Source: Nitrososphaeraceae archaeon
Lineage (GTDB): Archaea > Thermoproteota > Nitrososphaeria > Nitrososphaerales > Nitrososphaeraceae
DNA: 64,000 bases
NCBI GenBank assembly: GCA_031316115.1
Contig: JALDRC010000011.1
Location: 4,978-68,977 of the forward strand
Reading direction: 5' to 3'
Under the pieces are notes generated by a model. That model worked only from the letters and a program-made list of their open reading frames with translations, was not told the origin of the DNA and did no database searches. Positions within the stretch are counted from its first letter, which is position 1, and every line of letters starts with the position of its first letter. Position numbers and translations under genes: made by a program. This document shows, piece after piece, positions 5,850 to 28,450 of this stretch.

Positions 5850-6446
5850 AAATAATGATTTGTATTATTCTCTACTATTTTTATCTTCTGGATAAGCCTC
5901 TTCGGCAATTTCTCTATTGGTTCTCCTGTAGGTAATGGGGTGTCTCTATTGACTTTTATATTTTGATAATTCTGGAAAATTTTTTCCAATTATGACATTC
6001 ATTCCAACTGCGATTATTTCAGATTTAGGAATATCGTATCTATCATTAGAATATCCAAAAACGATTATCTTATCATGAGTTTCTTTTACGACATAACCTA
6101 AATCATCTTCATTCTCCGCGCGTACACCCTTTGTTAAAAAGGGATTTAGGATATTTGCCTTCATAAGTTGCTAGATCAACTTGATTATCATTATCTTCCC
6201 ATGGATCCGTTCTACTTGTTGGTAAGGATCATCTCGTTTTGCGGCATATCTATTTTCTACATCTGAAAATTGAAGACCAATAAGAACATTTGCACCTACT
6301 TGTTGAATATCAGATATTGGTATATCATATCTTTTTCCTTTTCCGCCAAAAACAATTATCTTATCAGGGGTTTCTCTCACAACATATCCAATATCAGGAT
6401 TATCTAAAGTTTTAACTCCTCTGTTAAAATATTTACCTGAAACCAT
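5850..6446 (-). pseudogene. Two-domain tandem-repeat protein split by at least three 1-nt indels
   Basis: ORFs 6171-6446, 5946-6164 and 5756-5989 join into one protein with two copies of (F)NRGV/NKGV...GYVV.ET.DKIIVFG....RYDIP.S.I..VG.NV.IG. Confidence 0.75.
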
Positions 6447-6769: not shown

Positions 6770-7287
6770 TTATTTTATTTTTATTTTAGTTTCCTCAACA
6801 GATGTTGGTTTTGTTTCGGTAGCTCTATTTTCAAAATACCATTTTCTACTGTGGCATCTACCTTAGCAGGTATAATATTTTCTGTAAATGGAATTTTTCT
6901 TGAAAACGATTTATAGCTTCTTTCTCTAAGAACGTAGTTTTCTTCTTCCTTTTCATTTTTTTTTTCATCTATGCCAGAAATTGAGAGATATTCTTCTGTT
7001 GCTTTAAGTTCTATCTTGTCCTTTTGTATGCCAGGTACCTCCAATGAAATTATGTATTTATCTCCATTATCTACAATATCACATAACGGAACACGTGTTT
7101 CAATAAAATCCATACCTGGTGTCATTCCATATGTTTTTAAAGGATTCATAAAAGGAGCAAAAAAAGCATCTTCTATATCGTGTCTAAATGTATCAAAGAG
7201 TTCATCAAATGGTCTACGTATCATTACTTGTCTTTTTTGGTCATCTTTATTTTTTGGTGTTATTTGAGAGGATGACATTTTGTTCAT
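6770..7287 (-). CDS. hsp20: Small heat shock protein Hsp20/alpha-crystallin (C-terminal frameshift in this sequence)
   Basis: Alpha-crystallin domain (LEVPGIQKDKI...ATVENGILKIELPK); the alternative frame gives the tail TKPTSVEETKIKIK* ending at 6770. Confidence 0.92.
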
Positions 7288-7423: not shown

Positions 7424-9088
7424 ATGTCATCTCAAGTTCCAGTTTTATTATTGAAAGAAGGAAGCACTGAAACTAAAGATAAAGATGCACAAAGAAACAA
7501 TATTACAGCAGCCAAACTAGCTGCAGAAATAATCAAATCTAGTTTGGGTCCACGCGGTATGGATAAAATGCTAGTTGATTCAATAGGAGATGTAACTATC
7601 ACAAACGATGGAGCTACTATTCTTAAGGAAATAGATGTACAACATCCTGCTGCCAAAATGATGGTAGAAATTACAAAGACTGTAGATAATGAAGTTGGAG
7701 ATGGTACTACGTCAGTAGTTGTCTTTGCAGGATCATTGTTAGAGAAGGCGGAAGAATTTATAGCCAGAAAAGTTCATCCTACTGTAATAGTAGATGGTTA
7801 TCGAAAAACTGCAGTAAAAGCAATTGAAGTATTAAAACATGTTGCTGAAAAAATAGAACCTACCGATAAAGATGATTTGAAAAAAATTGCGGTTACATCT
7901 ATGGCATCCAAACTTACATCAAATAATTCTCCAGAACTTTCAGATGTAATTATAAATGCAATATTGTCTGTTGTAGAAAAATCTGATAATACACCATTGA
8001 AAGTTGATATTGAAAACATCAAAGTAGAAAAGAAAGCTGGTAGTTCGATTAGAGATACCAAATTGATCAATGGAATCATATTAGACAAGGAAGTAGTTCA
8101 TGGAGGAATGCCAAAAAGAATTGAAAATGCTAAAATTGCTCTACTTAATTGTCCTTTAGAAATTGAAAAGACTGAATTTGATGCAAAAATAAATATTAAC
8201 AATCCAGAACAAATTCAGAAATTCATAGATGAAAAAAATACGATGTTAAAGGGAATGGTTGAGAAAATTTCAGAAACAGAAGCTAATGTTGTTCTATGCC
8301 AAAAAGGGATTGGTGAAATGGCACAACATTATTTGGCAAAATCAGGAATCTTATCAGTAAGACGAATCAAGGAAAGCGATATGTACAAATTATCAAAAGC
8401 AACTGGAGGTAAACTGATAAACAATCTTAATGATCTAACCAAAGAAGATCTAGGATATGCCAATCTAGTTGAAGAAAGAACAATTGAAACTGATAAATGG
8501 GTATTTGTAGAAGAATGTAAAAACCCTAAATCTGTAACTATTCTGGTAAGAGGAGGATCACAAAGAATCGTAGATGAGGTAGAAAGATCAATGCATGATG
8601 GACTTATGACTCTAAAAGATGTTATTGAATACCCATATATCATTGCTGGAGCTGGTGCCCCTGAGATATTCGTTTCATATAAACTAAGGGAATGGTCTAA
8701 CACATTAAATGGTAGAGAGCAATTATCTGCAGAGAAATTCATTCAAGCACTTGAATCTATTCCATTAACCTTAGCACAAAATGCAGGTATGGATCCTATT
8801 GATAGTCAAGTTCAACTAAGATCTAAAGTTTCAACAAGTAATAAACCAAAATATGGAGTAGATGTGATAAATGCAAAGATATCTGATGTATATGTAAAAG
8901 GAATATTTGAACCACTTGCAGTAAAAGAACAGGTTATCAATGCGGCTACAGAAGCTTGCTCGATGATACTTCATATTGATGATGTAATTGCTGCGGGGGC
9001 ATCTAAGGTACCTTCAGGTCCTTTCCATGGTGGTGGTGTAGGAGGAGGCATGGGTCCAGGAATGCATGGAGGAATGCCTGAGATGTGA
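7424..9088 (+). CDS. ths: Thermosome subunit (group II chaperonin)
   Basis: [26 protein letters not shown] motifs, Gly/Met-rich tail. Confidence 0.97.
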
Positions 9089-9625
9089 TAATATGTAATA
9101 ATAAATTTATTTTTTTAAATTTATTCTTGTGGACCGAATTATATTGATCATGTATTTTCAGTATTAGCTGACTAATTTATTATTTCATAATTATAAATGG
9201 AAATAAAGCTATCTTCTTATGTTTCCATAATTAAAAACAATTTTGTATATCTTTTTACAAAACTTTATCATTACAAAAAAGAAAAAAGATTTTTGTTAAA
9301 ATAGCAAATAGCAAATATTACATTATCTTAACAAAATCTGTAATTATATTAATTTTTATTATACTTGGATCTTGGATGTATGGAAAATATTTACTAATAG
9401 TTAAATCTAGTAAAAGTATTTACTAATCATCAATAACTCTTGTATGGCCTATATAACGGAAATACATAATTGTATCACATTCTTTTAAAACTAGTTTTGA
9501 GAAACAATAAAGTGTGAAATTTCATCAATACCTAGAATTTGGTTTTATATATCAGGAATAAACATAATCAAACTAATTTAGTATCTAATTTTCATATGAT
9601 CAATTCGCAGAGAGTGAAATAAAAC

Positions 9626-17824: not shown

Positions 17825-19081
17825 CTAAGCTATTTGCGAATTAAATGTATTTTTCTGTGAATTAGGAGGAACTATTTCTCTTATTTCAACATCATATATA
17901 TCAAATTTAAAATCATTTGCTTTTAAAATCACTATTGGAGAAGCCCAAGTGATTGCTTGACCATCAGTTTGGGCACCACACTTTTTCATATTGTCGCCCC
18001 AATCACCATTATCTATCATCTCATGTATTTTTTTGTATGGTCCTTTTCCACCATTTTCAGTATCTACCCAAGTTTCAAGCTTGACTGCAGTATCATTGAT
18101 ATTGTAAACTATGCCTTTAAAACCTATTATTTTTTCATAAATGTCTCCTACATTCAAACTTTCATTATATCGTTCCCATTCATAATCAATATGAAATTGT
18201 TCCTTTTTCATTCTTACATTTCCATCATCTGAAATATTGTTATGATAACTGGATCCTCCACAGAAAAATTCGGGCTCATTATTTGATTTTTTATATTCAT
18301 TATCTAATTGAGCATGTGTTATAGACCTTGTTACTATTGAAAGTGCATGATGCTCCTTTTCCGAACGTGACGAATCAAGCAACTTAAAAATCAAAGTTGT
18401 CTCTATATTCTTCCAATCAGTTGGCTTGTACCAATATCCTTTATCATTGAGTTTAGAAAAATTCCAACTTTGGATTTTACCTGAGGACATGTTATTTAAT
18501 TTTACTGGGTCATCTGGCAGTATTCCTGCATCCTTGGTATGAATATCTATTCTAGGTCTACCAAAATCTATTCTCCAGCTTCCGTCTTTGTTCTGTTTTG
18601 TGAAAACGTTTGATTTATCTTCTTTATTTACTTGTACTTTATCATTTGGATTAGTTTTATTAAAGTTGTACGTTTGTCCATCTGGAGCTGTTTGGTATAT
18701 TTGAGGTATGTGTAAAATTCTGTAATTATGTTTAAGAATCAGATCTTGATCTGTGTGTGTCCAAGAGACATCGTACTTTTCTTTATTATCTTTATCTTTT
18801 TTTTCTAGATTATATTTACTTTTTCTTTCTTTCTTTTTATCATGGGTTTTCTTTTCCTTTTCTTTGTTTTCAGTATCTTTGGTGTTTTTATCTTCTGTTT
18901 TGGTCTTTGCCCCCTTTTCATCCTTACCTTCTGAGTTATTATTATCTTCATTGTCTGGTTCTGCAAAAATTAGCATGGATTTATTATTAGTATGGTTATA
19001 ACTAATAATAGAAACTAAAAGGAGTATACTTAGAAAATAACATAACCATGCAAAGGTATTTTTTTCACTTTGATGATCCAA
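17825..19081 (-). CDS. Secreted protein with Lys/Glu/Asp-rich linker and conserved C-terminal domain; paralog of 21510-22688
   Basis: Signal anchor, low-complexity linker, DWKNIE, KLETWVD, ITW, VEIREI motifs. Confidence 0.8.
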   Translation of the reverse strand: MDHQSEKNTFAWLCYFLSILLLVSIISYNHTNNKSMLIFAEPDNEDNNNSEGKDEKGAKTKTEDKNTKDTENKEKEKKTHDKKKERKSKYNLEKKDKDNKEKYDVSWTHTDQDLILKHNYRILHIPQIYQTAPDGQTYNFNKTNPNDKVQVNKEDKSNVFTKQNKDGSWRIDFGRPRIDIHTKDAGILPDDPVKLNNMSSGKIQSWNFSKLNDKGYWYKPTDWKNIETTLIFKLLDSSRSEKEHHALSIVTRSITHAQLDNEYKKSNNEPEFFCGGSSYHNNISDDGNVRMKKEQFHIDYEWERYNESLNVGDIYEKIIGFKGIVYNINDTAVKLETWVDTENGGKGPYKKIHEMIDNGDWGDNMKKCGAQTDGQAITWASPIVILKANDFKFDIYDVEIREIVPPNSQKNTFNSQIA

Positions 19082-20217: not shown

Positions 20218-21057
20218 TCATCTTACTGGCAAACTATTTGCACTATCAAACTTCTTTAATACTCTTTTTTCGCATTCTTGAGCTTCAGGAGGGCTCAAGT
20301 CATCACCTGCGACACAAGCCAGAAATTTATCTCCTAGCTGAATTAATCCAGCATCTGTCTGTCTATCGAAGGTAAATGTTCTTGTTATAGTATCATCTTT
20401 GCTTTTAGAGATCTCTTGCTTTGCATTGTCTATTAGTTCTGATTGGATTTGACCTTTCAACATCACCATTACTTTGATCTTGTCTGCATTCTTTCTATCC
20501 GACATTGGGACCACAAGTTTAACGATTGCTTTCTCATTGTGATCACCGGTCTGACTCGTAGGTCCACCATTTGCATTAAAGAAGGCTAAGCTATCTTCGT
20601 AAACCATTGAAGAAGGTTTGAAAAGACTTACTGTGGTAGGTCCGCTAGTAGATGCCATATCTCCTTCATTACAATCATATTTTGTTAACTCTGAGTCACT
20701 CATGTGTTCCTTCACATGATATACACATGCAATATATTCATCAGGAGGACTTCCTTTGACAAGATCGTTTTCAGCATCTACCTTAAAATCAACTTTCATA
20801 GTCTGCTTTGCAGGGTCTATTTCAGAAAAAGGGATGTCTTTTGTGAGAGTTTCTCCATTAAATAAGGCTGTAATCCTTAAAAAACCATCTCTTTCCAAAT
20901 CTTGTAAAAATATTTTGACTCGAAGTGTGATTTTATCTTTACCGTTGTCCTCGTCTTGTTGAGCAAATGTTGTTTCAATAGAAGGGGCTAAGATTAATGG
21001 CAAAGCTAAAGCTAGAATCAGAACACTAGATAGGATTGTTATTGTTTTTCTCATCAA
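20218..21057 (-). CDS. Secreted hypothetical protein with two internal repeat domains
   Basis: Signal peptide; repeated DEYIACV...CNEG and DKFLACV...CEKR. Confidence 0.8.
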   Translation of the reverse strand: MMRKTITILSSVLILALALPLILAPSIETTFAQQDEDNGKDKITLRVKIFLQDLERDGFLRITALFNGETLTKDIPFSEIDPAKQTMKVDFKVDAENDLVKGSPPDEYIACVYHVKEHMSDSELTKYDCNEGDMASTSGPTTVSLFKPSSMVYEDSLAFFNANGGPTSQTGDHNEKAIVKLVVPMSDRKNADKIKVMVMLKGQIQSELIDNAKQEISKSKDDTITRTFTFDRQTDAGLIQLGDKFLACVAGDDLSPPEAQECEKRVLKKFDSANSLPVR

Positions 21058-21509: not shown

Positions 21510-22688
21510 TTGATTTTTAAAAACATAACTTTTATCTTGATACTCATATCTATCTCATTACTAATAGTTCCTTTTATTGACTTTAATGATAATAAATTTG
21601 CATCCGCAAAATCAGACGATGATGATGACGATAAGGAAGAAGATGACGAAGAAGAAAATAAAAATTACAAGAAAAAATCAAGGGATAAAGATAAAGACAC
21701 ACAAGATGAGAAGGAAGATCAACAACAAGGTGATGACGAAAAAGACAATGACAAAAAGACAAAAAAAAGTAAAAAAAATAAAAATAAGAAAGAGTTTGAT
21801 AACTATAGCGAAGCATCTTATGATAGAACTCTAACAGATAATAGAGAAAATGATGCTTATGATATATTTGGTATAAAAGAGATCTATCCAACTTCTTTAG
21901 ATGGCGAGGAATGGTTTTTAGATATGGAAGATCCAGTTGCTGATCCTCAGTTTAGTCCATTCAATATGAATACAAAAGCTACAGATCCAAATTTCAAGCT
22001 CACCCAAAATGAAGATGGCTCTTGGAAACTTAAATCAAAAAATTCTGAAGCTAAAGTCAGGATGGATGTATTTACCACTGATGGATATCATCCAGAAAGT
22101 ATAGAAACCTTTGATCATACAGAGCTGGCTAAAAAAGGATTTATGCAATCAGAAAAAGATTGGAAAAACGTGGAAATAACTGGATATATAAAACTTAACC
22201 ATCGTACCATACCATTAGATGAAGGAAAGTTTACTTGGTATAATAGAGGCGGCCATCATTCGGCTTCCAATCCCTGTGAGGGTGTAGGTTACAAAGGAAG
22301 TATTTATTTTTCAGGTGATTTAAAATTTTCAAAAGAACAATGGCATGTTAGTTACTTTTTTACTGATATTGAAAAAGGAATTGACTCATTAGAGGATAGA
22401 TGGATTGGTTATAAATTTATATCATATAATATTCCAGATCCTGACGAATCATCAGATACATTAGTGAAAATTGAAAGTTGGGTTGATATGGACAATGATG
22501 GAAATTGGATAAAGATGGATGAATACATAGATGATGGAAAATGGGGGAAATCGGGTAAAAGATGCGATGGGGAAAAAGATCAAATAATTACATGGGGAGG
22601 ACCTATTGCCACTTTTAGATGGGACAGGGCAGATGATGTTGACTTTATGGACTTGAGCGTTAGAGAAATTGAACCGCCATATATATAG
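21510..22688 (+). CDS. Secreted protein with acidic/basic linker; paralog of 17825-19081
   Basis: Signal peptide, DWKNVE, KIESWVD, ITWGGP, LSVREI. Confidence 0.85.
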   Translation: MIFKNITFILILISISLLIVPFIDFNDNKFASAKSDDDDDDKEEDDEEENKNYKKKSRDKDKDTQDEKEDQQQGDDEKDNDKKTKKSKKNKNKKEFDNYSEASYDRTLTDNRENDAYDIFGIKEIYPTSLDGEEWFLDMEDPVADPQFSPFNMNTKATDPNFKLTQNEDGSWKLKSKNSEAKVRMDVFTTDGYHPESIETFDHTELAKKGFMQSEKDWKNVEITGYIKLNHRTIPLDEGKFTWYNRGGHHSASNPCEGVGYKGSIYFSGDLKFSKEQWHVSYFFTDIEKGIDSLEDRWIGYKFISYNIPDPDESSDTLVKIESWVDMDNDGNWIKMDEYIDDGKWGKSGKRCDGEKDQIITWGGPIATFRWDRADDVDFMDLSVREIEPPYI

Positions 22689-22721
22689 CATATACTCTCA
22701 ATAAGATTTTCCGCAATCTAG

Positions 22722-22865
22722 AAACAAATTGTTACTAGAACCGGTTTTACATTAATTTATGATTTATTGAAGAAATTGAAGCATCATGCAATTGATAACG
22801 ATCAGACTTTGACCGCGATAGTTAATGATGCATTGTATGAATATCTGGATAGAAGAAACGGATAG
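22722..22865 (+). pseudogene. Ribbon-helix-helix (CopG/MetJ-like) DNA-binding protein, start codon missing
   Basis: Manual translation KQIVTRTGFTLIYDLLKKLKHHAIDNDQTLTAIVNDALYEYLDRRNG*; in-frame TAG at 22719 upstream. Confidence 0.65.
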
Positions 22866-22993
22866 AAAAATAGTAGAATCATTTCATTCTTTGTTTTGGA
22901 GATATTATTAGATCAATATAGGTACCAATAGTTTCTATTATCAATGGAAATAAACTACTTTTATCTAATGCTATATGTAAAACCATTAAACCC

Positions 22994-23074
22994 AATATAT
23001 CCATAGACAAGTCAAATCGGATGGTAGGTAGAAAGGTTTGCACTCTACTATCATTTCTCTACCATCTGGTTTTT
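22994..23074 (+). ncRNA. Cassette 1
   Basis: Stem 23014-23027/23059-23072 (AAATCGGATGGTAG/CTACCATCTGGTTT, 2 G-U), ends TTTTT; start site inferred. Confidence 0.6.
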
Positions 23075-23132
23075 AGTATTTGGTTAATTTTTAAATTAAT
23101 ATCTCATTCGAATAAAACTCATTATATCAATA

Positions 23133-23185
23133 GATTGGTAGATATGCTAGATGAATATAGTCCTAAGTATTTTCTAGTATCAATC
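23133..23185 (+). ncRNA. Cassette 2 (degenerate)
   Basis: GATTG/CAATC and ATGCTAGA/TCTAGTAT stems at the expected periodic position; no clear T tract. Confidence 0.35.
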
Positions 23186-23233
23186 GTAATAAATCAGTCT
23201 TATCTAATATTGCGTGTAAAACCAAGGATTTGC

Positions 23234-23302
23234 AGGGCTTACCGATGGAATCTATACCAGATGGTAGAAAAATTCCTTATAGTGTCTCTACCATCTGGTT
23301 TT
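23234..23302 (+). ncRNA. Cassette 3
   Basis: Perfect 13-bp stem ACCAGATGGTAGA/TCTACCATCTGGT; shares TTATCTAAT-N6-TGTAAAACCA and an 18-nt 3' end with cassette 1. Confidence 0.6.
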
Positions 23303-23361
23303 AATATTTTTTTTATTTTTTCTAAAACCACTAAATATTTTATTTACCATGATATATTGCC

Positions 23362-23446
23362 GGAAGGCAGGAATACAATCTGGAGGGTAAGATAGTAGTT
23401 TAAGCCATATTGGTCATCACTGCTATTATCTTACTCTCTAGTTTTT
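23362..23446 (+). ncRNA. Cassette 4
   Basis: 19-bp stem 23380-23398/23423-23441 with 3 G-U pairs, then TTTTT. Confidence 0.65.
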
Positions 23447-23497
23447 ACTAACTTTTATCATAAAGTGCAAAATATTATGATTCACATAAGATAATAC

Positions 23498-23575
23498 AGA
23501 GTGGTGTATCATAGCTCGGAGAGCAACAATGTAGAAGTTTAGTATCCTCTTTCCTTCTACCTGCTCTCAAATTTT
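23498..23575 (+). ncRNA. Cassette 5
   Basis: GAGAGCA/TGCTCTC outer stem and GTAGAAG/CTTCTAC inner stem. Confidence 0.6.
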
Positions 23576-23615
23576 ATCGAACTTATAAATATTATATTTA
23601 CCATGTTATATTACC

Positions 23616-23696
23616 AATAAGGTAGTAAGACGTTCCGAAGGAAGGCAGGATAGTAGTCAATCAATCCCTTGTTCTACTATCTTACTTTCCAATTTT
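23616..23696 (+). ncRNA. Cassette 6
   Basis: 17-bp stem 23640-23656/23674-23690 (2 G-U, 1 mismatch), then AATTTT. Confidence 0.65.
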
Positions 23697-23750
23697 CACT
23701 AACTTTTATCATAAAGTGCTAAGTATTATGATTCCCTTAAATTTATACCT

Positions 23751-23822
23751 AAAAAAGGTGCGCCACAATGGGAGAGCATTAAGGTAACAGGAACACGAAT
23801 TGTCCTAACCGCTCTCCAATTT
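23751..23822 (+). ncRNA. Cassette 7
   Basis: GGAGAGC/GCTCTCC outer stem with inner GGT/ACC and AGGA/TCCT. Confidence 0.6.
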
Positions 23823-23875
23823 CCTCTAACAATTATCTTAAACCGCTAAATATCATGATCACCATAAAGTTGTAC

Positions 23876-23959
23876 AACTGCTAACGAATACCTGTTGGAG
23901 AGTAAGAGATCATTGGTAGAAGTTTAGTTCCTGACCTTTCTTCTACTGGCTCTCCAATT
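23876..23959 (+). ncRNA. Cassette 8
   Basis: TTGGAGAG/CTCTCCAA outer stem; inner GTAGAAG/CTTCTAC as in cassette 5. Confidence 0.6.
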
Positions 23960-23996
23960 ATGATATGATTTATTATGCTCGCAAACGTTACCAATT

Positions 23997-24083
23997 ACTT
24001 CATACAAATCGAAGGATAGTGCCATAGGAGAGAGTAGGGACGACCAAGTCTGTCGACGATTCATTCCCTATTCTCTCCATTTT
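23997..24083 (+). ncRNA. Cassette 9
   Basis: 14-bp stem GGAGAGAGTAGGGA/TCCCTATTCTCTCC (1 G-U), then ATTTT; may also terminate the convergent operon. Confidence 0.55.
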
Positions 24084-24093
24084 AATATACTAT

Positions 24094-24555
24094 TTATTCC
24101 AAGTCTGGACTGTTATCAGAATAACTGATTAGTTTAGTCCCTCTATCAATTCGTTGCTGGATATCTGTGTCCAATTCCTCTGGTTCCAGTCTAGACTTTC
24201 TATTACTATTATTATTTCTATTCCTAGGTTTTATGAAGTGTTCTACCTTTAACCTATTAGAGTCATGAATTATTTCTGGTACGTCTCTGAAGCCAGCAAT
24301 CGTGCTTTCTTGCTTGCCATGTTCTACTGGATATACTGTTCCGCATTAATAGTATTGCAACCAACTTTCAAAGTCTGCTGGAATAGAACCATTTATGTAT
24401 TCATGGGGTTGATATATTCTAGGTTTTAGTTCCTTGTATGGAAATCCAAAGGTTCCACAGTGGACACAATATCTTTTATCTTCCGATGACTCTGAAGTAT
24501 AATAATTATCAGTTAGTGAAGTCCAATATTCTATACGTTTCTTAATTCTAGGCAT
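24094..24555 (-). pseudogene. Zn-ribbon/Zn-finger protein with one internal TAA
   Basis: YCVHCG...WLQYY*CGTVYPVEH; frame continues after the TAA at 24346 to a TAA at 24094 (~153 codons). Confidence 0.6.
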
Positions 24556-24592
24556 ATCTATAATTATTACTAGTTGTTAGTCTTAAATATCG

Positions 24593-26094
24593 CTATACTT
24601 CGAACAGCACACCTTTACAGAGAAGCCGAAGGCTGTCAAGATGGTCATTGTGAACTGTAGATGTCTTATCGAGATTAAATTCTTAGGCGTATGCAATCTT
24701 AAATGATCGAATAAGTTTATCGTACTTGGGATCAATTGCCAACTTTTGTTTTGTAAGGAATTGGTATAAGTGTTGTAATATAGTTTTATGTTCTTTGCCA
24801 AAGTTTACTGGAATTATACAATCGTCTTCAATATAGATATCTTTTACTTTTTCCCAGTCTAGGCTTTCGCCGTATTTACTCTTACATTCATTTACTGCTC
24901 CTCTGTTAGCACCATCTACAAACCATGAAAGATTAGGGATCGGGGTATGCAATTGGAACATATCATTTGCTATTTCACTAGGTGTTTTCTTGTCATATTC
25001 CTTACCTACTATTATTCTAACAATTTGTAGTTGTGGATCTAGTTCTGCAATGAATAAGGCCGTTACTGAACTATTAAATCCAAAGTCAACACCACCTATA
25101 TGCAAATCAAATGGGTTTGTTGGTAAATCTTTATACTGAATTCCTAATTGAATCACTTTATCAATATCAACCAGTGGAAATACATTTCCTATCTTCCCGA
25201 GATATTTGAGGTTATATTCACGTTCAAAATACGATTCATTCCTTTCACGTTCTCTTTGTATAATATCAGTGTCAAATATTTTCCCAAGTTCATTATTATA
25301 ATCTAGAAATATTTTATGAAAGAAATCTTTGAATATTTCGTTCTTCTCTATCCGTGCAAATAGATAATCTGGTCTATTGGGTGTGCTTGCCAATATGATC
25401 TTGCATTTACTTTTCTCCTCATAGGATTTTATCACATATTCTAATTCGTTCTGCTCTGCAGGCTCAAAGTAATCGGCCTCATCTTTGAAAAGATAGGAAA
25501 CATCTGTGTATCCTCTTAAATCCTGTATTCTTTTGGTAGGAAATACTTTGATCCAGGTATTGTTAAGCCATAATTCAGTATATTTGGATTCAAATTGTAT
25601 GTCGGGAAATTTCTTTTCAAAAAATCTTGTAAGACGTATTTTATGTTATTGCTTAATTCTTCCCTAGTTCCAGATACTAAAAATATAGATTTGCCATCCA
25701 ATTCATTTGAAGACATGCATTTCTAACCCAGATATCTCAGAACAAGTTCTGTTATTCCGATACCTCTGGCTTTCTTAATCCAGATATGTTGATTGTTTTC
25801 TATTGCATCTATTACTAATATCTCATAGTCAAATAATGGATATTCTTGTCCATTTTTCTGTGGCAATCCAATCACATGGTTAAAACAACAATTCCCATTA
25901 TTCTGAATATATAGACTTTTATGTTTAATAATATCAGCCCAGATCCAGAACTGCTTCTGGCGAAACTGCTCTGTGAAGCGTTGGGATTGCTGCTGGGCTG
26001 ATATATGAGTGATGGTTGCAGGTTTGAGATATCCGATATTCCTACTTACCGCGAGATTGTCGGTAACCAATCTCGCAAGATCCTTAAAAGTCAT
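24593..26094 (-). pseudogene. Terminase large subunit-like ATPase/nuclease
   Basis: Walker A-like IWIKKARGIGITE, Walker B-like YLFKDEADY, ASTP coupling motif, RNase H-like GGVDFG and HNDHLDSLR; interrupted by TAG (25723), a 1-nt frameshift (~25620) and TAA (24683). Confidence 0.85.
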
Positions 26095-26123
26095 ACTAGT
26101 TTATCAGAGATCCCATCAAAATG

Positions 26124-26549
26124 TTAAAACTTGGTTGTCAAAGTGTTTAATTCTTCTTCGCTGGTGAACGAATCCTCTAGTTTTTGTTTAGTATCTTCTA
26201 CAAACTTTATAGAGTCATTTAGCATAGCGTTAGTTAGCAAGTCCATTTTAGTTTGAATAGAATCCTTTGCTAATGATAATGCAGTTACTTTACCTTTGTT
26301 ATCTTGCGTTTTCTCTGCTTGCGCTACCATGATAAATGCTTCTTTAATTATTTCTTCAATCCCTTTTACTGCCTTATCAAACTCATATGGTAATTTTTCA
26401 TCGATCTGATTCTTTATTGCTTCTTTTGCCTGTTCTCTTAGAAATTTTATATCTCTAGATACTGTATATTTTGATAATTGTAGTATTTGACATATATCAG
26501 ACTGTGTGAATCCTTTAACTGCCAATTCTTGTGTTCTTGTGTTAGTCAA
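26124..26549 (-). CDS. HTH plus coiled-coil protein directly upstream of the terminase-like gene (candidate small terminase subunit)
   Basis: QELAVKGFTQSDICQILQLSKYTVSRDIKFLR HTH; position in operon. Confidence 0.7.
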   Translation of the reverse strand: MTNTRTQELAVKGFTQSDICQILQLSKYTVSRDIKFLREQAKEAIKNQIDEKLPYEFDKAVKGIEEIIKEAFIMVAQAEKTQDNKGKVTALSLAKDSIQTKMDLLTNAMLNDSIKFVEDTKQKLEDSFTSEEELNTLTTKF

Positions 26550-26815
26550 TTGCTTTTTTCACCCCACCAATTTTATCTAGTTGCAAGATTAATATAACAT
26601 AGTAATATTTGCAATAATAATTATTAACCTTTAGGGTAAATGTTAATAACTTCTATAATGATTTTCAATCGTCTTTAAAACGGCTTCTCTATACAAAAAC
26701 TATATAATCATATTATACTAATTATTATCTTTTAAATCTATCCAAATACCTTATAGTCAAAAATTATAAAAAATTTATTCTTACCTTAGATATATTTTAA
26801 ACCTGTTTTATGTAA

Positions 26816-27740
26816 ATGAAAATATCAATAAATATTCCTATATTCTTGATTGGTACAATATTAATGCTTGGAACTACCATTTCTATGGGAATTCCAACAA
26901 CATCGGTTGCATGATCTTACGAAGACTCATGGAAAAGACAAAAAGTCTTCAAGTCTAAATAAGCAGAATGTTAACTGCAACAACATGATAATAAATGAAG
27001 GAGATAGCGCTGGTCAAGGCTCAGCGGGAGAAGATATGATTAATGGAATGGCTAATGAAGATGATGGAACAGGGCAGTGGCTAGAAAACGGTAAAGATAA
27101 AGATTCGAACAACATTAACGAGAATATAGTTAATTTCTGCAAAAACAAGAATACTGAGGTAGTAATAGTAGCAGAAGGAGAGCCACAAACAGGATCTTTG
27201 ACGGTTAAGAAGGAAATCTTTGGATGCGAAACTATGGATGAAATAGGCGCTAATTGTCAACCATTAGATAATAATTCTCCAAACTGGATTTCATGTGATA
27301 ATTCTGAAATTAGCAATGATGTATTTTGTCAGGAATTGTCAGAAGATTTATTTGATATTGAAGTTTTAGACGACCAGAATAATCCGATATTGGAATTTGT
27401 AGGTTCACAACAGGGAACAACTATCCACAATCTAGAACCTGGAACATATATTGTTAATGAGATAAAACATCACAGTAGTGAAGACCAATTAGGACAATCT
27501 GAACCAGACCAAATACAATGTAATAACCAGCAAAACTTCCCTGAAGGGGGAAAACTCATCAAGCAAAATCCAATGATAGATTATCGCATTTGCTTTGAAT
27601 ATGAAGATGAACAAGGAAATGATTGTACTACAAATACTATAACAGCAGGTGAAACCAAAACATGTATAGTTAAAAATTACATTAGCACTGCACTACTTTT
27701 TGAATTTCCTTACCCTTGTAATTTTTATGGGTTGAAATAG
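26816..27740 (+). pseudogene. Secreted Cys-containing protein with disrupted N-terminus
   Basis: Signal peptide MKISINIPIFLIGTILMLGTTISMG starts at 26816 in another frame and hits TGA near 26912; body is ORF 26868-27740. Confidence 0.6.
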
Positions 27741-27994: not shown

Positions 27995-28450
27995 ATGAAT
28001 AGTAAAACCAAGATTGGTTCAATGTTTCTGTTAGCAGCAGTACTTGTTGCTGGTACAATAGCAATGACAATTCCAAAGTCAATAGCACAGCCAGAAGACA
28101 GAGAATACGAAGACCATTATGGCAAAGATCCGTATAACAAATATTATAATGGTCATGATGATCCATTTGGAAAAGACCATGACAAAGAGTATAAAGGTGC
28201 AAATGTCCAGTCTATAAAATGTATTAATAGCAACGTCAATATCAATGGAGTAGATATTCATAAACGCACACCAACAACATTGGCAGAAGATGCAACAGCA
28301 GCAGATGCACAACAACTACAGAACGGTCAAGGAAATGGCTTATTTGGTGGATTAAACATAGACAAAAATCTAGTAAATATCTGTGTTAACTTCAACTTTA
28401 ACGAACAAGAAGACCAAGATTGTGAAATAAGCGGTACTTGTCCTCTCTAA
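27995..28450 (+). CDS. Secreted hypothetical protein (Nitrososphaeraceae family)
   Basis: MNSKTKIGSMFLLAAVLVAGTIAM signal; IKCINSNVNINGVD...NLVNICVN. Confidence 0.8.
   Translation: MNSKTKIGSMFLLAAVLVAGTIAMTIPKSIAQPEDREYEDHYGKDPYNKYYNGHDDPFGKDHDKEYKGANVQSIKCINSNVNINGVDIHKRTPTTLAEDATAADAQQLQNGQGNGLFGGLNIDKNLVNICVNFNFNEQEDQDCEISGTCPL

Follow-up and report, generated by a model that had tools for sequence, protein, structure and literature searches.

In the window, by which we mean the whole stretch of 64,000 nucleotides analysed here (contig JALDRC010000011.1 of a Nitrososphaeraceae archaeon), the region of approx. 22.7–26.6 kb very probably contains a decayed, capsid-less element with a gene for a large terminase subunit (TerL) and with a battery of hairpins that is linked to a ribbon-helix-helix (RHH) gene. 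As a degraded copy, it belongs to a family of integrative elements of about 10 kb from Nitrososphaeraceae. When the hairpins are read as RNAs with a regulatory or immunity role and all of this is taken together as one statement, we consider it somewhat better than evenly balanced. The original prediction had described an RHH gene and an array of hairpins on the + strand, facing a minus-strand operon of a helix-turn-helix (HTH) gene, a TerL-like gene and a zinc-binding (here Zn-ribbon) gene, and all of these were found where it had placed them. The gaps inside the operon are 29 and 37 bp, exactly as claimed, and the distance between the stop of the operon (codon 24094–24096) and the last hairpin, given there as ~15 nt, is 10–15 nt (the stem ends at 24078 and its T-run at 24083). 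There is no portal, capsid or integrase gene among the neighbours in the window, which had also been claimed. The features of the region are as follows, where u1–u8 denote the hairpin units.

22722..22865 (+): remnant of the RHH (CopG/Arc-like) gene, start and first ~10 codons gone; 91% identity to residues 11–57 of the intact homologue P0121
22891..22985 (+): long, imperfect inverted repeat, perhaps a degenerate unit (repeats I1 and D3); −16.3 kcal/mol; weak, membership of the array uncertain
23014..23077 (+): u1, hairpin with stem base GATGGTAG..CTACCATC and T-run; −21.2 kcal/mol, z −3.5
23254..23303 (+): u2, hairpin with T-run, paralogue of u1; −22.6 kcal/mol, z −3.4; repeats D6 and I22
23333..23447 (+): u3, TATA-like box at 23333, leader, hairpin 23380–23441, TTTTT; −30 kcal/mol, z −4.9; box 47 nt upstream of the stem
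23470..23576 (+): u4, two-helix type B, box at 23470, hairpin 23519–23568, TTTT; orthologous to the first hairpin of the intact relative L270 (alignment A6)
23587..23697 (+): u5, box at 23587, hairpin 23640–23690, TTTT; paralogue of u3 (two-unit duplication of 251 nt, repeat D1)
23721..23823 (+): u6, type B, variant box AAGTATTA at 23721, hairpin 23771–23817, weak T-run; z −1.6, the weakest unit
23848..23958 (+): u7, type B, box AAATATC at 23848, hairpin 23894–23958, no clear T-run; covered by a 203-nt contig of metatranscriptome X22
24027..24084 (+): u8, hairpin 24027–24078 and TTTT, the last unit, beside the stop codon of the Zn-ribbon gene; −29.2 kcal/mol, z −4.6
24094..24555 (−): Zn-ribbon (CxxC...CxxC) pseudogene, conserved partner downstream of TerL; in-frame TAA at 24346
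24593..26094 (−): TerL pseudogene with two in-frame stops and one frameshift; PHROG_2, E = 2.3e-21
26124..26549 (−): HTH gene in the small-terminase position, open frame with a deletion of 10 codons; weak HTH matches
26600..26613 (−): TATA-like box TGCAAATATTACTA upstream of the HTH–TerL operon, resembling the boxes of the array; read from the sequence, putative promoter

The hairpin array and the decay of its neighbours

Eight hairpins (u1–u8, 23014–24084) stand on the + strand between the RHH and Zn-ribbon genes, with folding energies from −18 to −30 kcal/mol and z-scores against shuffles from −1.6 to −4.9. By strict criteria, six hairpins are present in the 1228-nt array, compared to 0.055 ± 0.23 (maximum 1) in 200 dinucleotide shuffles, and two in the other 62.8 kb of the window. 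The units u3–u8 share a stem base, GGAGAG...CTCTCC, together with an inner GTAGAAG or GATAGTAG, while the base of u1 and u2 is different (GATGGTAG...CTACCATC). In u3–u7 the stem is preceded, at a distance of 46–53 nt, by a box with the consensus AAcyrCTAAATATTaTgaTTyAC. Six of the eight stems have a T-run behind them, and u7 lacks a clear one. Blocks of the array are duplicated at spacings of 251 and 239 nt, as seen from the repeat structure, and the 5' part of the inverted repeat at 22891–22985 recurs at 23148–23224, ahead of u2. Each of u3–u7 consists of a TATA-like box, a leader of ~20–25 nt and a hairpin of 45–65 nt, with oligo-T in u3–u6 (weak in u6), and each unit would yield a hairpin RNA of ~75–95 nt from the RHH strand.

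Known repeat classes do not account for the array. ARAGORN found no tRNA gene in the region, and Rfam returned no family for it, either at the gathering threshold or at E ≤ 5. The candidates CRISPR, tRNA and type III toxin-antitoxin repeats were rejected, as there was no tRNA, no such tandem repeat, no CRISPR family above noise and no PADLOC match. A 124-aa open reading frame (ORF) over the array (23021–23395) passes through hairpins and was judged spurious, and a scan for bacterial-type terminators and promoters was uninformative, as the loops are larger than its limits. Short direct repeats tie the array to the 3' part of the Zn-ribbon gene (23921–23932/24131–24142 and 23125–23145/24144–24164). 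Furthermore, in the metagenome runs X1, X2, X11 and X13, compared over 22400–26700 of the window, there are skips of 210–455 nt and a 586-nt back-joint inside the array, and loose contig ends carry unit variants foreign to the window, so the number and order of units differ among co-occurring copies.

The original prediction had called this copy pseudogenised, and indeed the TerL, Zn-ribbon and RHH genes are all broken. In TerL, a TAG (25723–25725) stands where the intact relative P0001 has a Trp, there is a frameshift at ~25606–25612, and a TAA (24683–24685) stands at the position of a Glu in P0001. The Zn-ribbon gene has a TAA at 24346–24348 and has lost one Cys of its second CxxC motif. The RHH frame begins right behind a TAG (22719) and offers neither ATG nor GTG as a start; the intact homologue P0121 is 57 aa long and the frame matches its residues 11–57, i.e., the RHH gene of the window is 5'-truncated. 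The HTH product (141 aa, TTG start) is 89% identical to the copy on the related contig L271, with an 11-residue gap; 10 codons are missing in comparison with L271, and one metagenome variant holds the missing stretch as a 30-nt insertion after 26528. With three pseudogenes, and with the genes for the integrase and the PriX-domain protein of its relatives gone, the copy in the window is a dead remnant, with low biological weight by itself.

The terminase and its element family

The TerL-like gene is a genuine large terminase, judging by its PHROG match and its predicted fold. Its read-through matches PHROG_2 'terminase large subunit' (E = 2.3e-21), is 78% identical to P0001 and retains KKARGIGIT, LFKDEAD and ASTP of the ATPase as well as GVDFG, FVDGAN and NDHLDSLR of the nuclease. 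In an alignment of 30 homologues (A2), the ATPase motifs (Walker A KKxRGIGxT, Walker B DEAD, and STP) are invariant, as are the nuclease residues D334, D391 and D481, with D484 nearly so, and several members of the family carry a recorded Pfam Terminase_6N. For the AlphaFold model of P0001 (pLDDT 87), the top matches of the fold search against the PDB are all large terminases (T4 gp17 with 9e-18, D6E, Sf6 and HK97). Foldseek matched its nuclease domain to G20c (TM 0.75, the highest), SPP1, P22 and RB49, and its ATPase domain to T4 gp17 and P74-26. An N-terminal ASCE ATPase and a C-terminal RNase H-like nuclease are thus both present, whereas portal or capsid neighbours and an intact frame in the window are not. 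When the alignment profile was searched against the PDB by sequence there was no match, and the fold search alone succeeded.

The other proteins are less well characterised. Pfam and NCBIfam recognised neither the pieces of TerL nor the Zn-ribbon protein nor a gene of ~230 aa, and for the Zn-ribbon protein no family or PDB match was found; its homologues follow TerL in the loci L001, L005, L270 and L271 and in the viral contig L085. Homologues of the HTH protein sit upstream of TerL in about 29 loci. The HTH protein of the window has no similarity to the genes upstream of TerL in viral contigs, so it is proposed as the small terminase from its position; a look-up of the intact protein returned only contigs of ~1 kb. 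The RHH frame of the window matches Pfam RHH_1 with E 0.021 and 15.2 bits, which is below the 20.5-bit cutoff, and its sequence pattern fits RHH. For its homologue in L001 a weak precomputed RHH_1 match exists, and an RHH profile search across all loci returned the seed sequences only. The TerL and Zn-ribbon genes of this packaging module descend from head-tailed archaeal viruses, and the HTH gene, as the presumed small terminase, probably shares this descent.

The search for TerL homologues gave 1203 proteins at E ≤ 0.001, and a scan of one genome per species gave 80 TerL loci, nearly all from Nitrososphaerales, with several copies in some genomes. ORF clustering over these 80 loci showed that the conserved neighbours of TerL are the HTH gene, a gene for a PriX-domain protein (NF033412, 62 bits with a cutoff of 50), one for a protein of ~600 aa and a tyrosine integrase gene, and no conserved gene occupies the portal position after TerL. 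In the metagenomes with the window sequence, the TerL stretch has 2–5 times the depth of its flanks and occurs on several diverged contigs, which fits a multi-copy element. On one Nitrososphaerales contig (CAVOHZ010000010.1, 1.8 Mb) there are seven copies of the TerL family (L003, L004, L005, L007, which is the same as L001, L010, L043 and L055), some of them intact with the PriX-domain gene and integrase and others fragmented. Seven copies in one genome indicate an active, proliferating element family.

Four IMG/VR contigs (L082–L085, 40–59 kb) carry a TerL of 40–50% identity, followed by a homologue of the Zn-ribbon gene and by genes of ~520, ~255 and ~390–440 aa. None of these three families has a homologue in any of the 80 cellular loci, and Pfam and PHROGs leave them unnamed, save for one weak match to a 'minor head protein'. 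From their size and order they are probably the portal, minor head protein and capsid of uncharacterised head-tailed viruses of Nitrososphaerales.

Close and intact relatives of the window copy come from the 90% cluster of P0001, which gave two JGI contigs, L270 and L271. Their genes are, in order, HTH (152 and 154 aa), TerL (502 and 499 aa) and Zn-ribbon (153 aa), followed by a gap of 510–570 nt and, on the opposite strand, RHH (67 and 63 aa); past RHH come a gene of ~232 aa and an integrase of 544–560 aa. The HTH proteins are 89% identical to that of the window, and the TerL and Zn-ribbon genes are intact. A PriX-domain gene before HTH was seen in L271 only, as the L270 contig begins too near TerL; host genes follow the integrase of L270, and the L271 contig ends soon behind its own. 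In both contigs the gap holds three units of hairpin and T-run of the window type. The unit of L270 beside the Zn-ribbon stop and the middle unit of L271 are orthologues of u8, and in the alignment of these (A5) five of 15 pairs have compensatory changes and many pairs have changes from GC to GU. The first unit of L270 is orthologous to u4 and u7 (~85% identity, same two-helix architecture), with no compensatory change in the alignment (A6). The same layout with three units is seen in the Logan contig L220, which was found via the RHH protein; its RHH, Zn-ribbon and TerL are 87%, 70% and 71% identical to those of the window, and the hairpins align at one 29-nt box only. Finally, L001 has two hairpins in the corresponding place; its TerL match is 68% identical to P0001, and its protein P0003 is 57% identical to the read-through of the window.

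Intact homologues had been proposed as the test of the whole arrangement, and since L270 and L271 are intact and keep three hairpin units, the array truly belongs to the elements of this single clade. From the repeat structure and from the comparison with L220, L270 and L271, it can be seen that the eight units of the window are a local expansion of a three-unit array by tandem duplication. The hallmarks of a satellite (tyrosine recombinase, PriX-domain gene and no homologues of morphogenesis genes) are found in L001, L270 and L271, and the copy in the window has lost them. One of the two options in the original prediction, a decayed provirus or satellite with a battery of small RNAs, was therefore essentially right as regards a decayed satellite-like element with a battery, with the correction that the parent is a capsid-less integrative element of ~10 kb, which has kept nothing but the packaging genes of head-tailed viruses, rather than a head-tail provirus.

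Two further observations concern the TerL family. At least 16 contigs of Nitrososphaeraceae metagenome-assembled genomes (MAGs) have an intact ORF (mostly ~270 aa, one of 315) that consists of the TerL-family ATPase domain alone and ends just past FEREYNLKY, with no nuclease domain (L038, L045 at 8733–9548, L053, L057, L060, L062, L064–L067, L069, L072, L075, L077, L079 and L080). It stands among conserved host genes in the order Nre, RTX-repeat protein, FMN reductase, TerL-N, PP2C phosphatase, glyoxalase and polyprenyl synthetase, and looks like an exapted terminase ATPase. A TerL of this archaeal family with 42% identity, on a 2.7-kb contig binned as the anammox bacterium Candidatus Brocadia sp. 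(L008, PHFX01000287.1), is most likely a binning error.

As for the surroundings, the window has ~29% G+C and holds archaeal housekeeping genes (thermosome, eRF1) amid many genes for secreted proteins. The ORFs next to the remnant have no informative Pfam match and the appearance of secreted or surface proteins. Unannotated, apparently secreted paralogous families flank it at 17825–19081 (−), 20218–21057 (−), 21510–22688 (+), 26868–27740 (+) and 27995–28450 (+), and these families recur beside TerL elements of other genomes; possibly the element carries them as cargo, or else they form part of a variable island. Two of them, 20218–21057 and 27995–28450, are strong in the wastewater metatranscriptome X26 (contig depths of 15 and 25–65).

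Hairpins, the RHH gene and competing explanations

Clusters of hairpins with T-runs were scanned for in 217 TerL loci (2.27 Mb from genomes, IMG/VR and metagenomes; three family scans), and three loci had them: L011 and L013 with comparable arrays, and L001 with its two hairpins (L007 being the same place as L001). The viral contigs with portal-sized genes have no hairpin array, and across 81 loci no enrichment of hairpins downstream of TerL was found. L011 and L013 are two decayed copies in one MAG, and their stem is a different one (CCATAGCCCTC...GAGGGCTATGG), with boxes at a similar spacing in most units. An RHH-like gene of another type immediately precedes these hairpins, which are 2.4 kb from TerL and point away from it, and a third contig with this second RHH-like type, L225, has a box and a hairpin immediately downstream of the gene. 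Hairpins downstream of RHH and on its strand are thus found in the window, L220, L270, L271 and L001, and with the second RHH-like type in L011, L013 and L225. The array tracks the RHH gene, and so it belongs to the RHH regulatory module and not to TerL. Exact-pattern scans of IMG/VR with both stem types gave single chance-level matches and no arrays, and no dispersed copies of either type, like those of miniature inverted-repeat transposable elements, were found in 2.3 Mb.

This distribution largely refutes the other option of the original prediction, a terminase-derived module that works with the RNAs, either with a cofactor similar to the packaging RNA (pRNA) of phi29 or as an RNA-guided nuclease. 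In the window, L220, L270, L271 and L001, the array converges on the adjacent TerL operon, which would suit such a module, and one hairpin has a striking complementarity: the apex of unit 2 of L271, the hairpin nearest RHH (6903–6924), is antisense at 19 of 22 positions to the element's own Zn-ribbon mRNA (6355–6378, codons EPEELDTDI). The energy of this duplex is −29.7 kcal/mol, and the 150 decoy segments tried with that 24-mer all stayed weaker than −22; L270 has not retained the site. However, hairpins are missing from 214 of the 217 TerL loci, viral contigs and many intact cellular copies among them, and this was the frequency by which the option was to be judged, as homologous loci without arrays had been named as the outcome against it. 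The array of L011 is 2.4 kb off and directed away from TerL, the terminase has the ordinary fold and motifs with no extra RNA-binding domain, there is no pRNA or other Rfam match, and the antisense test was not significant overall. We consider a joint action of TerL and the hairpins highly improbable.

Whether the units act as RNA or as DNA was approached by folding 22 hairpins from five loci on both strands. There are 40 G·U pairs on the RHH strand and 20 on the opposite one (binomial p 0.013), and the RHH strand folds better by a mean of 3.0 kcal/mol (Wilcoxon p 0.004). A box together with oligo-T, as expected of a small-RNA gene, was found overall, with the exception of u1, u2 and u8 (no box) and u7 (no T-run). 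The distance from box to stem is also mostly 45–52 nt in the arrays of L220, L011 and L225, with 67 nt in one unit of L011. A similar box (TGCAAATATTA) is found upstream of the HTH–TerL operon, and a AAATATAT box lies 22–28 nt before the leaderless RHH gene of L220; because like boxes precede these genes, the box of the array is probably a local TATA element. In the mangrove metatranscriptome X22 there is a 203-nt contig 100% identical to 23819–24021 (the u7 region), where the rest of 27 kb of the window is represented by thermosome fragments only, and one contig of the wastewater metatranscriptome X26 derives from a paralogous array. From this anatomy, the G·U strand bias and the weak metatranscriptome evidence, we find it fairly probable that the units are RNA genes.

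Several observations weigh against the reading of the region as an element with an RHH-linked battery of regulatory RNAs. The G·U bias may partly come from purine-rich 5' arms, and several of the counted hairpins are paralogous. No box is recognisable in u1, u2 and u8, and L005 and L076 have an RHH gene of the window type and no hairpins. The metatranscriptome contigs are assembled and cross unit borders, so they possibly reflect read-through or contaminating DNA. In X26 the window's own array was unseen even though two neighbouring genes are strongly expressed; as standard libraries lose RNAs shorter than 100 nt, this absence is not decisive. A blastn-short search with the arrays against 2.3 Mb of related loci gave AT-rich chance matches only and no target. 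When complementarity to the own mRNAs (Zn-ribbon, TerL and HTH) was tested in six elements, ungapped and with decoys as the control, the result was not significant. No att repeats turned up in L001, and the borders of the element were not located.

The inverted repeats could act as DNA instead, as a replication origin, as a pac-like site or as an array of centromere-like or operator sites to which the RHH protein binds. RHH proteins are known to bind repeated sites (ParR on parC, omega, and F55 of SSV1), the array adjoins both the packaging operon and the RHH gene, and each RHH type has its own stem motif (GGAGAG..GTAGAAG as opposed to CCATAGCCCTC). The AT-rich spacers also resemble unwinding elements, and the number of units varies as it does in iteron arrays. 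On the other hand, sites for a protein need a conserved motif and not a complementarity of 16–25 bp that is specific to each unit. The pairing is preserved through compensatory and G·U changes, and a G·U bias on one strand is not expected of double-stranded DNA; the T-runs are on one strand only, and the TATA-like box keeps a fixed spacing of 46–53 nt. Most TerL elements, moreover, have no array, yet they need an origin and a pac site. RNA genes are therefore more likely than DNA sites, to which we give a modest chance.

The array could also be functionless, a tandem-duplicated segment of terminator plus promoter that is drifting in a dead element. Such a view would agree with the pseudogenised copy, the recent 251/239-nt block duplications, the unstable number of units in metagenomes and the lack of a known target. 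We hold it to be quite unlikely, because intact elements keep three units between the RHH and Zn-ribbon genes, and the orthologous hairpins of the window and L270/L271 are conserved with compensatory changes. In addition, a second, unrelated stem family shows the same anatomy behind a different RHH gene, and the stems of the window are still well paired while three neighbouring genes broke.

Of all the explanations that we weighed, the least probable is that the hairpins are recombination sites of a tyrosine recombinase, an integron-like attC array with units of ~128 nt as minimal cassettes. The hairpins do have conserved bases and variable centres, their number and order vary, and the tyrosine recombinase of the intact elements weakly matches the 'integron integrase' TIGR02249, although with 32 bits it is far under the cutoff of 265 bits. 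There are no ORFs between the hairpins and no R/L-box motif (GTTRRRY), and the integrase is 3–4 kb away at the edge of the element, as for an ordinary integration gene. The strand bias in G·U pairs and the anatomy of box and T-run suit RNA genes better.

Proposed role and comparison with known systems

If the units are RNA genes, their hairpin RNAs may act in trans and, together with the RHH repressor, hold in check the late genes of their own element or those of a rival element or helper virus. We propose this because of the anatomy and the analogy with P22 immI, the CI RNA of P4 and CopG/RNAII, and we regard the regulatory or immunity function, taken by itself, as a tentative possibility. 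To extend it further, the capsid-less multi-copy elements could be satellites of head-tailed archaeal viruses whose own terminase hijacks the capsids of a helper, and the battery could be an RNA-based immunity or interference system, with units aimed at the own late operon, at rivals or at the helper, which expands and diversifies by tandem duplication; this extended scenario is unlikely. To our knowledge, almost nothing is known about small RNAs of Nitrososphaerales, and if the units are expressed, they would be rare regulatory RNAs encoded by a mobile genetic element in this order. A terminase is generally taken as a hallmark of a true head-tailed virus. The relatives of the window copy make up a large and apparently active family of multi-copy elements in ammonia oxidisers of soil and wastewater, with which the existence of terminase-bearing satellites of archaeal head-tailed viruses becomes testable. 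The hairpin battery is a compact accessory, not described before, of one clade of this family.

The closest regulatory parallels are found in mobile elements of bacteria. The immI region of P22 has the RHH repressors Arc and Mnt together with the sar antisense RNA, and pMV158 has CopG together with RNAII. As proposed for the present elements, a regulatory module of a mobile element there combines an RHH repressor gene with a neighbouring gene for a short hairpin RNA that has a promoter and a terminator to itself. In P22 and pMV158, however, a single RNA overlaps its target in antisense, while here there are 3–8 tandem units with no such overlap and with no target among the loci and mRNAs searched. 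In sequence, the systems are unrelated. The satellite P4 likewise uses a small hairpin RNA (CI) for immunity. PADLOC gave no match to a known defence system.

Regarding packaging, phi29 is similar in that its genome codes for a small structured RNA as well as for a packaging ATPase. The packaging ATPase of phi29 is not a TerL-type enzyme, and unlike in phi29, the RNAs described here have no Rfam pRNA match, occur with a different class of ATPase and have genes that are not conserved together with TerL. The terminases of Caudoviricetes (T4 gp17, D6E, Sf6 gp2 and HK97) share the two-domain fold and the catalytic motifs with the present TerL; in contrast to them, the TerL of the window is a pseudogene, the cellular family resides in capsid-less elements, and one branch is a stand-alone ATPase domain at a conserved host locus.

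In their gene content, the elements are comparable with phage satellites (PICI/SaPI, P4 and PLE) and with the archaeal pSSVx, pSSVi and SRCE, which are likewise small and have an integrase, a primase-type replication gene, some packaging genes and no capsid. Multiple copies are a further point in common, as is the existence of related viruses whose morphogenetic modules are probably complete. TerS or redirecting factors are usual in bacterial satellites and TerL is rare, whereas the present elements carry TerL. The known archaeal satellites parasitise spindle-shaped and not head-tailed viruses (bioRxiv 10.1101/2025.02.15.638363).

The most similar element described is NitKor-E1 of Ca. Nitrosopumilus koreensis AR1, a cryptic integrated element with TerS and TerL and no other Caudovirales genes, whose terminase was called 'enigmatic' (Krupovic et al. 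2019, PMC6563490). Hairpin RNA genes are not reported in that paper, in which neither 'hairpin' nor 'small RNA' occurs (PMC6563490). Compared by description, both are integrated elements of thaumarchaea in which a tyrosine integrase is present and a small gene precedes TerL. The present elements differ from NitKor-E1 in that they come from Nitrososphaeraceae, form a large multi-copy family and have a PriX-domain gene, a Zn-ribbon gene and the module of RHH gene and hairpins.

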